Positions 2,162-10,379 of a DNA stretch of 64,000 nucleotides are shown in pieces. The position numbers and the translations under genes were made by a program. The first letter of the stretch is position 1; each line of letters starts with the position of its first letter. The notes beneath the pieces are model-generated. The model did no database searches, had not been told where the DNA came from, and worked only from the letters and a program-made list of their open reading frames with translations. Source of the stretch: an uncultured Candidatus Actinomarina sp. (GTDB lineage: Bacteria > Actinomycetota > Acidimicrobiia > Actinomarinales > Actinomarinaceae); NCBI GenBank assembly GCA_902555985.1, contig CACDUI010000005.1, forward strand, positions 508 to 64,507, given 5' to 3'.

Positions 2162-3225
2162 TATTTACTGTTTTATTATTTGTAACATCATCATCGATTG
2201 CTGTTGAATTAGAAGAGGATCTAGTATCTACTGATTATTATTTATCATATGATATAGAGAATAATTCTATTTTGCATGATAAGAACATAAACGAACCTAT
2301 ATCACCGGCTTCTATTACTAAATTAATGACAGCATTGTTACTTTATGAAAATTCAAATTTGGATGATTTAGTGACAATATCTTACCCAAAAGATTATTCT
2401 TTCGAAGGTAAAGTTGCATATCTTAATAAAGGTTCTGTAGTTTCTGCAGAACAATTAATAGAATTCTTATTAGTGTTTTCTGCAAATGATGCCGCTTATG
2501 CCTCTGCAGAATACGTTTCTGGTAGTACAAATGAATTTATTAAGTTAATGAATTTAAGAGCTAACCAGTTAAACATGGATAATACAAATTTTAAAAATCC
2601 TGATGGTTTAGATGAAATAGATCACTACACAACATTGAATGATTTGTTATCACTGTCTAAATATATTTTAGAAAATACCAAACTGATCGATATTACAAAT
2701 AAATCAAAATTTTATTACGATCAAGATGGGGAAGTCAAAGAATACAAAAATACAAATTTACTTATAGATGATGGTTTTATAGGTATGAAAACTGGGTGGA
2801 CCTCAAATGCCGGATTAACGTTTGTCGGTTATAACCAAGGAAATAATAGAAATATTATCACTATAGTTAACAAATCTTTTGTTGATAAGGACAAGCAAAC
2901 ACATTTTCAAGACACAAAAATACTATATAATGAATCAATAAATAATTTTTACATGAGTACGATTTTAAACGAATCCACACCTGTATACAAGATTATCAAT
3001 CCATTGACAGATAAAAGATTTTTGGCTGTATCAAGTATCACAAAATTTGGGTATAAAGATATAAAAACCAATATAGATTTAAATAAAATAATTAAAAATA
3101 GTGTAAGTTTTTCAAATAATTTTGACAATGAATTAATAGAAATTCAAATAAATGATTCTAGAAATTCAATAAATTATGAATTTCTAAAGTCAAATATTTT
3201 ATTCAAAATATTTTCATCTAGTTAG
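2158..3225 (+). CDS. D-alanyl-D-alanine carboxypeptidase (peptidase S11)
   Basis: PASITKLMT (SxxK), SANDAA (SxN), FKNPDGL, GMKTGWT (KTG); N-terminal signal-like segment. Confidence 0.92.
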   Translation: MIFTVLLFVTSSSIAVELEEDLVSTDYYLSYDIENNSILHDKNINEPISPASITKLMTALLLYENSNLDDLVTISYPKDYSFEGKVAYLNKGSVVSAEQLIEFLLVFSANDAAYASAEYVSGSTNEFIKLMNLRANQLNMDNTNFKNPDGLDEIDHYTTLNDLLSLSKYILENTKLIDITNKSKFYYDQDGEVKEYKNTNLLIDDGFIGMKTGWTSNAGLTFVGYNQGNNRNIITIVNKSFVDKDKQTHFQDTKILYNESINNFYMSTILNESTPVYKIINPLTDKRFLAVSSITKFGYKDIKTNIDLNKIIKNSVSFSNNFDNELIEIQINDSRNSINYEFLKSNILFKIFSSS

Positions 3226-3256
3226 CACTATTTCACTTCAAGATTACTCTTTTATT

Positions 3257-3736
3257 ATGAGTGAGAAAGTAGTTGTAGAAGTTTCTGGTATAAGACTTGA
3301 AGAAGATTCAGAGACTCCAATTATGCTTCTTCAGGATCCTAAAACTTTTAGATTTCTACCGATATGGATAGGTACAATTGAAGCTGTATCTATAGCTTAC
3401 GCACAAGAAGGATATGTTCACCCAAGACCTCAAACGCACGATCTACTTATAGATATTGTAGAGTCGTTGAATGCATCAATTTCTGAGGTTTGTATTACTG
3501 ATATAAAAGAGAAAACATATTTTGCTGAAATTACATTAAGCACTTTAGAGGGAAATGTTACTTTGTCATCTAGACCAAGCGATGCCATTGCATTAGCAAT
3601 AAGGTCTGATTCTAAAATTACTGTTGATAATGAATTATTTAGTAGTAATTCAATCATATTAATTGAAGAAAATAACGAAGAAATACAAGAATTTAAGCAG
3701 TTTATTGATGATATTTCTCCAGAGGATTTTTCCTAA
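3257..3736 (+). CDS. Bifunctional nuclease family protein (DUF151, Rv1829-like)
   Basis: LPIWIG, RPQTHDL, SRPSDAIALA motifs and C-terminal FKQFIDDISPEDF. Confidence 0.92.
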   Translation: MSEKVVVEVSGIRLEEDSETPIMLLQDPKTFRFLPIWIGTIEAVSIAYAQEGYVHPRPQTHDLLIDIVESLNASISEVCITDIKEKTYFAEITLSTLEGNVTLSSRPSDAIALAIRSDSKITVDNELFSSNSIILIEENNEEIQEFKQFIDDISPEDFS

Positions 3737-5462: not shown

Positions 5463-5500
5463 AACGCAACATAATATATATTATAGGACAAACAACAAGT

Positions 5501-8514: not shown

Positions 8515-9438
8515 ATGAAACAGGACATTATAAAGTTTGATGAAAATATTTATCAAATTGACGTATTTATGGAAAATAAACCTGGTCGTATGTCTTGTTA
8601 TTATATTGATTCAACGAACCCCATATTGATAGAAGTAGGACCATCTAAATCATTCCCCTACCTTATATCAAGCCTCGAATCCTTAGGAATCAATGAAGTA
8701 AAAAGATCGGCAATGACTCATTTACATTTAGATCATATAGGAGGAATCGGTCACATGGTAGAAAAATATAAAGAACATTTTGTTTATATTCACGAACTGG
8801 GTATCAAACACCTTCCTAATCCAGAAAAATTATGGAAAGCTGTATCTGAAGTTTATACAGAAGAGTGGTTAACAACCAATTGGGGTGAAATTAAACCGAC
8901 TCCAATAAATAATCTTCGTTCACTTAAAGATAAAGAACTTATAGATCTTGGAAAAGGCAGAAAATTAGAAGCTATATACGGACCAGGTCACGCAAAGCAT
9001 CATTACACATTTTATGATGAATATTCTAAAACTCTTTTTATGGGAGATACATTAGGATTAATTTATCCCCATGGTAATTTTGTACAACCAAACCTTCCAC
9101 CTCCTGATTTTAATAAAGAAGTTTTATTTAATACTTTAGATGAATTGTATAAGCTAGATCTTAATTATTTAGCACTAGCCCATTTTGGAATTCATAATAA
9201 TCCCTACGAATTGATAATAAATGCAAAACAAAATATAGAAGAATGGATAGTTTTTATTAATAATTTGAATGATATGTCAGATGAATTTGCTATTGAATCT
9301 ATAAGAAGTTGGGTAAGGGGTAATTATGAATTTCTTAATATTGACAAAAATACTATCGATAATTATATAAACAATGCTAATTTTGAAATGCAAATAAATG
9401 GAATCAGGAATTATCTAATAAATAAGAAAAACCCCTAG
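8515..9438 (+). CDS. MBL-fold metallo-hydrolase
   Basis: THLHLDHIGG, PGHAKHH, FMGD, AHFG motifs. Confidence 0.9.
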   Translation: MKQDIIKFDENIYQIDVFMENKPGRMSCYYIDSTNPILIEVGPSKSFPYLISSLESLGINEVKRSAMTHLHLDHIGGIGHMVEKYKEHFVYIHELGIKHLPNPEKLWKAVSEVYTEEWLTTNWGEIKPTPINNLRSLKDKELIDLGKGRKLEAIYGPGHAKHHYTFYDEYSKTLFMGDTLGLIYPHGNFVQPNLPPPDFNKEVLFNTLDELYKLDLNYLALAHFGIHNNPYELIINAKQNIEEWIVFINNLNDMSDEFAIESIRSWVRGNYEFLNIDKNTIDNYINNANFEMQINGIRNYLINKKNP

Positions 9439-9455
9439 TTTCCTAGGGGCTCTTC
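9425..9455 (-). terminator. Intrinsic terminator hairpin, probably the ancestral rrn terminator; overlaps the stop codon of the convergent MBL gene
   Basis: CCCCTAG-tttc-CTAGGGG stem with an A-run on + (U-run on -), directly after the displaced 5S 3' fragment. Confidence 0.75.
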
Positions 9456-9456
9456 A

Positions 9457-9484
9457 TTAAAAGTTTGCAGTGTCCTACTCTCCC
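9457..9484 (-). repeat. Duplicated 3' end of 5S rRNA (att-like site)
   Basis: 26/28 identity to 10256-10283; perfect 18-bp core GCAGTGTCCTACTCTCCC at 9467-9484 and 10266-10283. Confidence 0.92.
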
Positions 9485-9507
9485 CGTGGTTTCCTATAAT
9501 TCCGGAT

Positions 9508-9532
9508 GAAACTGAGCCAAAACTGAGCCAAA
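9508..9532. repeat. 25-bp direct repeat copy 1 (tandem AACTGAGCCAA x2), arm-type site candidate
   Basis: GAAACTGAGCCAAAACTGAGCCAAA, identical to 10176-10200. Confidence 0.95.
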
Positions 9533-9537
9533 ATTAA

Positions 9538-10146
9538 TTAATTTTGTAATATCTCCCAGTCGGGATGGTCTTGCCATTTTTGAGGATTTTCTAAAATATC
9601 TTTTAATTCTAAAATCATATATTTAATTTCAGTATGTAAATCTATTCCATAATCACCTTGGTTTCTACCAAGTAATCCACTTTTCCATCCACCTTTAAGA
9701 TTTCCTTCAACAGCTATAAAAGATTGAGTTTCATGAATTACACGCAAAATTAATTCTTGGAGTACTCGAGCATCCTCTTTAGGAAAGTAACCTAAAGTAT
9801 TTTCTTTCATGTGAAGTTTAGGATTTCTTACTGAAACTGCGTACTTATCAAATTCATTATTGACTTCTGGTATGAGAAGTAATAGATCTATATGTGAGTA
9901 ATTAGATTCTTTTGACTTTTTCCCAAATGCTTTTATAAAATTTTTTTGGACAAAAGATTCTCCAACAACGTCTTCATAAGAAAGTTTATTACCATCACTA
10001 TCTTCACTATCAAGCATGATTATATTATTGCCACCGCCTGGACTTTTTTTACCTGTTGTTGGCCATATCATTTTATCAATAAGTTCTGCTCTGCTTCTGT
10101 ATTCAGCTTGAGACAACCATTTTGATTTTTTTGAGAAAAATTTCAT
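9538..10146 (-). CDS. HIRAN-domain protein (cargo of the 5S-integrated element)
   Basis: VVGES, LIPEVNNEFDKYAVSV (HIRAN L.PE..N..D..AV.V) and LGYFPK motifs; own extended -10 TGATATAAT 6 nt before ATG. Confidence 0.75.
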   Translation of the reverse strand: MKFFSKKSKWLSQAEYRSRAELIDKMIWPTTGKKSPGGGNNIIMLDSEDSDGNKLSYEDVVGESFVQKNFIKAFGKKSKESNYSHIDLLLLIPEVNNEFDKYAVSVRNPKLHMKENTLGYFPKEDARVLQELILRVIHETQSFIAVEGNLKGGWKSGLLGRNQGDYGIDLHTEIKYMILELKDILENPQKWQDHPDWEILQN

Positions 10147-10175
10147 ATTAAAATTATATCATCTTTTTATAATGA

Positions 10176-10200
10176 GAAACTGAGCCAAAACTGAGCCAAA
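10176..10200. repeat. 25-bp direct repeat copy 2
   Basis: Identical to 9508-9532. Confidence 0.95.
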
Positions 10201-10225
10201 TTCTGTAAAAGTTAATCAATTAAAT

Positions 10226-10255
10226 GAAAAAACCCCGATTTCTCGGGGTTCTTTC
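10226..10255 (-). terminator. Intrinsic terminator after 5S rRNA (probably element-supplied)
   Basis: Minus strand AACCCCGA-gaaa-TCGGGGTT followed by a U-run. Confidence 0.85.
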
Positions 10256-10261
10256 TTAAAA

Positions 10262-10379
<118 letters not shown>

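Follow-up and report, generated by a model that had tools for sequence, protein, structure and literature searches.

An integrase-less single-gene unit with phage-type attachment junctions at the 5S rRNA gene of Candidatus Actinomarina

A probable miniature integrative element at the end of the 5S rRNA gene

In a 64-kb stretch of the genome of an uncultured Candidatus Actinomarina sp. (contig CACDUI010000005.1; hereafter the window), the end of the 5S rRNA gene is repeated 799 bp further on, and the two copies enclose one gene framed by identical 25-nucleotide (nt) repeats. We consider it likely that this 799-bp unit belongs, as a miniature integrative element, to a lambda-type system, i.e., one driven by a tyrosine integrase that uses arm sites, and that the system is targeted at the 3' end of the 5S gene. 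Lambda-type integration involves a tyrosine integrase with an arm-binding domain, a phage attachment site (attP) made of a core and arm sites, and a target (the bacterial site, attB) at the 3' end of a tRNA or tmRNA gene. As judged from sequence, the window unit represents the integrated form of such a system, with a cargo gene between left and right junctions (attL and attR) and no integrase, because its 25-nt repeats equal the arms of phage attP sites and stand at the phage spacing on the attL side. The evidence comprises the anatomy of the unit, the homology of its junctions to phage attP sites, an insertion polymorphism among relatives and the lack of a cognate integrase in the genomes searched. 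The parts are, in the order in which the minus strand is read:

13484-10424, minus strand: 23S rRNA gene
10261..10377, minus strand: 5S rRNA gene, intact and single (Rfam RF00001, 107 bits for a threshold of 38, model positions 1-120)
10262..10283, minus strand: attL core, the native 5S tail GGGAGAGTAGGACACTGCCGAC (direct repeat; relatives have the same tail)
10226..10255, minus strand: element-borne terminator, now closing the rRNA operon (terminator scan: 13 pairs and a T run)
10176..10200, minus strand: P' arm, a tandem 11-mer (TTTTGGCTCAG twice) that begins 69 nt past the first 13 nt of the core
9538..10146, minus strand: cargo gene (open reading frame, ORF) for a stand-alone HIRAN-like protein of 202 amino acids (aa)
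9508..9532, minus strand: P arm, a tandem 11-mer identical to the P' arm (perfect 25-nt repeat)
9485..9507, minus strand: stump of the P-arm region (CATCCGGAATTATAGGAAACCACGG), from which about 95 nt of repeat-rich sequence are gone (alignments with genomes G016 and G054, metagenome contig L086 and phage contig L077)
9463..9484, minus strand: attR core, a copy of the 5S tail in which CG is replaced by AA (…CTGCAAAC; direct repeat)
9426..9455, minus strand: the host's original 5S terminator, displaced by the insertion (terminator scan; equal to the terminator of relatives with an empty site)
8515..9438, plus strand: flanking core gene of metallo-beta-lactamase fold (Pfam Lactamase_B, E = 9e-20)

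A first-pass annotation of the window, made by reading the sequence, had described this minus-strand order of 5S gene, terminator, 25-nt repeat, one gene, 25-nt repeat, 5S-tail copy and terminator, and every part lies where it had been placed. A direct-repeat search recovered the pair of perfect 18-nt cores that it had reported (9467-9484 and 10266-10283, 799 bp apart), inside a 57-nt direct repeat of 5S tail plus terminator that has 79% identity and the same spacing of 799 nt (9428-9484 and 10227-10283). The perfect 25-nt repeat (9508-9532 and 10176-10200) is internally a tandem of one 11-mer, and its 23-nt version has two matches in the window for 0.00 expected (100 shuffles). The terminator scan gave five terminator-like sites in the region for 0.8 expected. 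The second hairpin (9455-9426) overlaps, as had been observed, the stop codon (9436-9438) of the convergent metallo-beta-lactamase-fold gene, which is the conserved far border of the variable site and adjoins it in 21 relatives. The element itself holds no tyrosine recombinase, its sole ORF being the one for the HIRAN-like protein.

Actinomarina genomes have one rRNA operon each, and the genome of the window (1.03 Mb in 26 contigs) carries a 5S gene 46 nt past the 23S gene, with 134 nt between the 16S and 23S genes. These values fit the Actinomarina operon spacers of 135-153 bp and 46-49 bp given in a 2026 preprint (10.64898/2026.04.03.716425). The 5S genes of relatives score 99-108 bits with the same Rfam model (RF00001), and the last 20-22 nt of the gene constitute the attachment core.

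The junctions match the attachment sites of a phage family

We scanned viral contigs for the 5S tail and found it in three that lack a 5S gene and have a G+C content of about 40%. There it sits between two pairs of tandem 11-mers, arranged as in the window. The gene of a 397-aa tyrosine integrase lies about 1 kb from this attP, and phage tail genes lie on the opposite side. The integrase matches Pfam Phage_integrase (PF00589, E = 1.9e-16), a SAM-like domain and phrog_1 (E = 1.8e-52), and its relatives at 78-100% identity occur at seven viral loci, all with the same attP build. In contig L053 the genes follow the order tail genes, attP, four small ORFs, integrase, excisionase-like, Erf-like, WhiB-like and replication-initiator genes; the integrase, excisionase, Erf-like protein, WhiB-like protein, replication initiator and tail proteins are annotated from PHROGs, and the excisionase-like protein has 57 aa. 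The search for tyrosine integrases beside the core and repeats of the AACTGAGCCAA type, which the first-pass annotation had proposed, was thus successful in both viral and metagenome contigs, and its idea of an element family that uses 5S rRNA as attB is supported by these phage contigs.

The pattern of core plus arms was found in 36 stretches, 9 of them viral and 27 from metagenomes (the two collections share at least three contigs), and had no match in a collection of genome contigs, which may leave out the window's own genome. The 36 stretches sort into 24 of phage type, 11 of host type and one chance match (L093). Those of phage type have a G+C content of 0.40-0.44 and one core each. Their P' arm begins 71 nt past the first 13 nt of the core in 24/24 cases (22/24 by the arm table), and the P arm lies 140-150 nt before the core in the 21 stretches where it was found. 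The integrase gene is about 1 kb upstream in 19 of the 24; the other five end before that point. The attP core equals the 5S tail of the genus over 22/22 nt in four stretches (L045, L046, L047 and L099). In two others (L080 and L090) it equals, over 22 nt, the 5S tail of three genomes of 2.3-2.8 Mb (G341, G202 and G389; L117-L119) from another family of the same class, f40. From these matches, the phage family probably spans several host families.

The arms also link the window to these phages. The 11-mer of the window recurs unchanged in the P arms of phage contigs L077, L068, L084, L067 and L071. In a four-way alignment, the attR of the window covers the P-arm side of the L077 attP and its attL covers the core and the P' side, so that together they tile that attP, with identical arm 11-mers. 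The P' arm lies at 69 nt in the window, at 71 nt in the phages and at 60-71 nt in attL sites of host type, whereas the P arm of the window begins 49 nt before the core, compared with 133-150 nt in complete copies. Since the 11-mers are tandem repeats on both sides of the core at fixed distances, we regard them as putative arm sites of a lambda-type system. This homology of both junctions to phage attP, together with the existence of empty sites (see below), supports the earlier reading of the repeats as the attL and attR signature of Campbell integration by a tyrosine integrase.

Four nucleotides of the 11-mer are variable: the P and P' arms of one element are equal or one base apart in them, and different elements differ. 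A comparison of 12 integrases shows conservation to be lowest in the first 70 residues, with 60-74% identity between most lineages, compared with 75-96% and 82-91% elsewhere in the protein. The integrases of L046 and L081, whose arms differ, are 70% identical in the N-terminal part and 96% and 90% identical in the other two parts; L052 and L053 differ by one arm base despite 96% N-terminal identity. These comparisons are suggestive of arms and integrase N-terminus varying together.

Integrated forms in other contigs

The 11 host-type metagenome contigs have a G+C content of 0.27-0.32 and show a 5S gene or an earlier cassette, followed by core, terminator, P' arm and unrelated cargo; none of the 11 encodes an integrase. 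At least ten different units share a tight build of P' arm, 5-45 nt, cargo, 5-45 nt and P arm, and no fragment of a phage gene was found between the arms in the window or in the other tight units compared.

An independent metagenome contig (L086) also carries the cargo and arms of the window, with 99.3% identity along 717 nt; there the context is different and includes a second gene and a hybrid middle arm. From P arm to core, L086 is about 95 nt longer than the window unit, and the additional sequence is rich in short repeats that are common to all phage attP sites. The cargo also occurs on short contigs from two further sequencing runs, one of them with the longer P-arm form. By this comparison, the window copy is a deletion derivative whose attR is short of about 95 nt of the arm region, and it may be unable to excise after this loss.

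The presence of the unit in independent assemblies also bears on the weakest alternatives: that the partial copy is the decayed remnant of a tandemly duplicated 5S gene, or an artefact of assembly. A partial 5S copy 799 nt from the gene could be read in this way, and longer partial copies of 64-88 nt do exist in two relatives (G012 and G017), but we hold both explanations to be very improbable, since the sequence upstream of the 20-22 nt tail copy is phage P-arm sequence and not 5S, and the same cassette is found in L086 and in contigs of the two further runs. The first-pass annotation had named both as outcomes that would overturn its reading, and neither came about.

The native tail and the switch of terminators

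Which of the two 5S tails is original was a point at which the earlier reading had to be reversed. It had implied that the displaced tail is the original one, from its perfect pairing in helix I. The 5S tail is present in 55/64 same-genus genomes and all 55 end in ...CTGCCGA(C/T), as does the gene of the window, while the CTGCAAAC tail occurs among same-genus genomes only in the displaced copy of the window. In the Rfam register, helix I pairs with the tail that is presently on the gene. This tail is thus native, because it is common to all tail-bearing relatives and is paired by Rfam. The displaced tail does pair better with the 5' strand of the 5S gene, yet the relatives share the tail of the gene, and pairing is therefore no evidence of originality.

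The terminators tell the complementary part. In relatives with an empty site, the 5S gene ends in ...CTGCCGAC and is followed by the same terminator that is displaced in the window. The displaced tail plus terminator equals the sequence of these relatives at 55/57 nt, both differences being the CG to AA change in the tail, and the displaced terminator is identical to the one behind the 5S gene of empty-site relatives G021, G013 and G001. The terminator now behind the 5S gene of the window differs from that of the empty-site relatives, and its type is found behind the core in metagenome contigs L073, L083 and L097. These comparisons indicate that the insertion delivered a new terminator and displaced the old one while the native tail remained on the gene, and that the ancestral part of the displaced copy is its terminator.

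The sequence upstream of the displaced core (GGAAACCACGG) had been described as a different 5S-like loop. It aligns to the P-arm region of phage attP and not to 5S. A diverged 5S gene as the source of the arm region was ruled out, with no 5S match on the arm regions of G054 or G016 at E-values up to 1.

An identical 5S tail plus terminator is present in 15 named contigs, of which 12 are from Candidatus Actinomarina sp. A 4-kb contig (L112) of a metagenome-assembled genome labelled Opitutales also holds the exact Actinomarina 5S tail and terminator, which is probably a binning error.

Insertion polymorphism of the 5S site

The interval between the 5S gene and the flanking metallo-beta-lactamase-fold gene was readable in 21 same-genus genomes and the window, i.e., in 22 stretches; G016 (split on two contigs), G020 (only the flanking gene on the contig) and G006 (no match) are outside this count. 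The first-pass annotation had proposed to look for empty sites and for alleles with other cargo, and both were found. The site is empty in 9/22 stretches, with the 5S gene, one terminator and the flanking gene. Another nine contain one or two other genes without a second core, mostly genes of paralogous small membrane proteins and, in one case, a pyrimidine-dimer glycosylase. The remaining four (the window, G022, G017 and G012) have a second copy of the core.

Multi-copy arrays add to this variability. At least two core copies occur in 8/55 tail-bearing genus genomes, always clustered on one strand, with three copies each in G050, G054 and G058 and six, over two contig ends, in G016. The unit of these arrays consists of one or two genes, then about 20 nt of 5S tail, then a terminator. 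The 5S copy has a sharp common left edge at GAGAGTAGG in more than 12 cassettes. The full-length P-arm form is also present in G016 and G054. A genus-wide scan with the short arm motif CCGGAATTATAGGAA, allowing two mismatches, gave matches at chance level (a reversed control was similar), and only the exact or one-mismatch matches in G000, G016 and G054 are meaningful.

Some relatives carry other material at the site. Ten of them (G015, G007, G005, G003, G008, G011, G023, G017, G014 and G018; loci L005-L007, L012, L019-L021, L033, L035 and L036) encode small hydrophobic proteins of 125-140 aa in this interval, in one to three tandem paralogous genes that lie behind the 5S terminator and before the flanking gene; these genes are not surrounded by 5S-tail repeats and are absent from the window. 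In G017 (contig C4, L033, around 2518-2696), a second 5S copy of 88 nt abuts a piece of the flanking gene, 98 nt from its 3' end region, and this duplicate looks like a chromosomal circle that was re-inserted through homology. In G012 (contig C6, L032, around 2376-3560), an insert comprises a 64-nt 5S copy, a different new terminator and two genes on the reverse strand, around which are three copies of another tandem repeat with an 11-nt period. The insert may belong to a second element lineage; its arm repeats had no match in viral contigs.

The cargo

The protein encoded by the window unit scores 23 bits with Pfam HIRAN (PF08797), just under the cut-off of 24.7, and 47 of its 49 aligned relatives match this family. 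Its AlphaFold model has a mean confidence (pLDDT) of 85, and the best 12 listed Foldseek matches in the PDB are HIRAN domains (HLTF first) at probabilities of 0.72-1.0, but with template modelling scores of 0.2-0.5 and root-mean-square deviations of 8-12; for the top-ranking HLTF domains these scores are as low as 0.2-0.36. Close relatives are rare (three in a search of 5.8 billion proteins); among cluster representatives there are 51 relatives at E-values up to 0.001, mostly over residues 55-175. Little can be learned from weak matches to PHROGs of unknown function and to a candidate defence family of PADLOC. The gene has a host-like G+C content of 0.29, compared with at least 0.40 in the phages. 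Across the arrays of the genus, the cargo that can be named is mostly defence-like: AIPR, T5orf172 (twice), a superfamily 1 helicase and HIRAN. One may guess that the cargo protein of the window senses DNA ends in phage defence.

One further protein (P0003, 168 aa, on a contig of 866 bp) joins the first 59 residues of the cargo protein to a tRNA-synthetase anticodon-binding domain, and is probably a chimeric contig or a rearrangement. A TATAAT stands in the sequence before the cargo gene (10147-10175), at about 7 nt from the ATG, and many cassettes have similar motifs behind their terminators. A promoter scan of the same 10147-10175 interval gave no full sigma-70 site. The placement of the TATAAT suggests that cassettes may give rise to leaderless transcripts.

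How the unit may have inserted and where it may come from

The observations can be assembled into a mechanism. A temperate phage family carries the 397-aa tyrosine integrase, the excisionase-like gene and an attP with a 5S-tail core and 11-mer arms, and the phage-type integrase would recombine attP with attB at the 5S tail. A Campbell insertion at the end of the 5S gene would then yield an attL made of the 5S gene with its core, the element-borne terminator and the P' arm, and an attR made of the P arm, the core copy and the displaced host terminator. The crossover would fall in or just past the shared tail; the CG to AA change and the switch of terminators would fit a crossover in ACTTTTAA, behind the tail. 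The window unit could have been inserted by phage integrase supplied in trans, and repeated insertions followed by decay could build the arrays seen in relatives.

Several points weigh against this account. The match of the integrase to an arm-binding domain is weak (19.6 bits, below the Pfam cut-off). Only the one phage lineage named above has an attP core that matches the genus tail exactly, the other cores differing by 1-4 nt; many of these phages may, from their cores, infect other hosts, and their G+C content is well above the approximately 0.30 of the host. The integration of the phages themselves is read from the identity of attP and attB, and no complete prophage was seen at a 5S gene in the 64 genus genomes or the metagenome matches. 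None of the 24 phage-type stretches has a second att site or a passenger cassette, and the viral contigs contain no close relative of the cargo; no vehicle that would move a 0.8-kb unit between cells was therefore found. No excised circle was obtained from the assembled contigs of the sequencing runs; one run contig had a joint with a 27-nt side inside the repeat and is not trusted as a circle or empty-site junction. Finally, many cassettes in relatives have no arms (those of G050, G058 and G022, and most of those of G016) and could have spread by homologous recombination.

Within the lambda-type reading, there is the question of what the unit was before it was inserted. The first-pass annotation had offered a trans-mobilised satellite or cassette and a remnant of a larger element. 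Its description of the unit as integrase-less holds. The P4 and PICI (phage-inducible chromosomal island) types of phage satellite do not match, as the window unit has one HIRAN-like ORF, no integrase of its own and no packaging-redirecting genes. We lean slightly towards a cassette that travels as such over what is left of a prophage. Units appear to move as cassettes because at least ten of them have different, tightly packed cargo, no phage gene remnants and a host-like G+C content.

That a whole phage integrated at the end of the 5S gene, and that deletions then spared one useful gene between the arms, is in our view rather unlikely, although it would readily account for the phage type of both window junctions and would spare us the vehicle for a 0.8-kb unit, which was found neither in the viral contigs nor in the 24 phage-type stretches. 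Streamlined genomes of about 1 Mb are expected to delete fast, and the window attR has itself lost 95 nt. Deletion would nevertheless have had to produce the same tight build in at least ten units and leave a phage gene fragment in none of them, with cargo of host-like G+C (0.27-0.32, compared with 0.40-0.44 in phages); and neither a partly deleted prophage nor an integrase pseudogene was seen at the site in the 64 genomes and the 11 host-type contigs.

A second alternative does without a site-specific step: the cassettes would be exchanged by RecA-type homologous recombination after DNA uptake, with homology provided either by the 57-nt repeats of tail and terminator or by the flanking gene and the rRNA operon, and the arms would be inert relics. 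Some of the array seems to have been shaped in this way. The arm-less cassettes are bounded by the 57-nt repeat alone, the G017 duplicate of a flanking-gene fragment and an 88-nt 5S piece resembles a re-inserted chromosomal circle, and the hybrid middle arm of L086 looks as if it came from recombination between arms. Because of these three cases, homologous recombination also appears to reshape the array, and rRNA genes have been proposed as recombination anchors for the hypervariable region HVR2 of SAR11 (PMC2217521). As the explanation of the window unit, we find homologous exchange improbable. It accounts neither for the phage-like arm distances in host copies (P' at 69-71 nt, P at 133-150 nt), nor for the matched arms within one unit, nor for the sharp left edge at GAGAGTAGG, and the stretch that the two window junctions have in common past the CG/AA difference is just 8 nt.

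Returning to phage-type integration of cassettes, we tentatively propose a wider reading, which we think possible rather than probable: the end of the 5S gene would be an integron-like capture site without a resident integrase, at which the integrase of a passing phage files minimal attP cassettes in trans, one after the other. The minimal cassette would consist of P' arm, gene, P arm and core. If this were true, integrase-free streamlined bacteria would share an exchangeable pool of mostly defence genes, and the same logic might underlie the unexplained tRNA-repeat cassettes of this order.

Comparison with known systems

The system is like lambda-type integration in the enzymes of its phages (a tyrosine recombinase with a SAM-like domain and a weak match to an arm-binding domain, and an excisionase-like gene), in an attP core that equals the end of a stable-RNA gene with repeated arm motifs on both sides, and in an integrated unit that lies between direct repeats and supplies the new terminator of its target gene. 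It is unlike it in that the target is the 5S rRNA gene of the sole rRNA operon and in that the integrated forms have one or two genes only and no integrase. Our literature searches did not bring up any case of a phage that uses a bacterial 5S gene for attachment. Lambda-type integration itself is known; what is new here is the 5S target and the integrase-less single-gene units that form arrays. The 5S rRNA gene would thereby join the stable-RNA genes that serve as phage attachment sites, here with the genome's only copy. The exact match of attP and attB ties uncultured temperate phages to marine Acidimicrobiia, and the WhiB-like gene is a second pointer to actinobacterial hosts.

Tycheposons, which occur in Prochlorococcus islands along with cargo-only remnants, reportedly encode a recombinase as well as replication genes and are located at tRNA genes. 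The arrays described here have much in common with them, namely a streamlined marine host, cargo arrays between partial copies of stable-RNA genes and dependence on a tyrosine recombinase; they differ in that 5S rRNA is the target and a tailed phage carries the integrase. Integron arrays are similar in stacking single-gene, mostly promoter-poor units at one site, each with its own recombination site and with variable cargo. There is, in contrast, no integron integrase beside the 5S array, and what recurs, instead of an attC hairpin, is a 5S tail with its terminator and lambda-type arms.

Another precedent comes from the same group of organisms. Lopez-Perez et al. 2020 (PMC7771536) described tRNA-repeat cassettes in this order and, in the accessible text, name no recombinase or donor element; the word "integrase" is absent from the main text, the sites dealt with there are tRNA sites only, and the rRNA operon is handled as a unit removed before read recruitment. 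As far as that text describes them, these additive islands also grow by small cassettes that are added serially beside a stable-RNA gene, a partial copy of which closes every cassette; the difference is that here the donor-type attP, the arms and the integrase are identified. Abundant streamlined ocean bacteria have additive cassette islands without integrases, and a concrete, testable mechanism for their growth can now be offered, with the recombination sites, the arm motifs and a candidate enzyme identified. The unit illustrates how streamlined genomes can gain genes.

Resident recombinases and the replication terminus

A phage-type integrase was found in 0/64 family genomes and 0/401 class genomes, where the best identity was 30% and the only relatives were distant ones at 27-30%. 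The genomes of the genus have, as a rule, two Xer-like tyrosine recombinases only; among the 64 genus genomes, other intact tyrosine recombinases were found only in G073 (C3:173982-174512) and G045 (C1:228606-229100), with 367 and 339 aa, respectively.

Two systems based on resident enzymes were considered and rejected. An integron would require an IntI-type integrase with attI beside the array, and neither is there, the neighbours being the rRNA genes and the metallo-beta-lactamase-fold gene; the Xer-like recombinases score far below the cut-off with integron-integrase models. An IMEX, i.e., an element inserted by XerCD at dif, was rejected because the candidate dif does not resemble the 5S-tail core and both recombinases are Xer-like proteins of the ordinary kind. 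The candidate (5470-5497), a putative dif by its motif, has a palindromic AT core and lies in a 38-nt intergenic gap. It is close to the turn of the cumulative GC skew (at about 4.8 kb), which places the rRNA operon within about 5 kb of the likely terminus.

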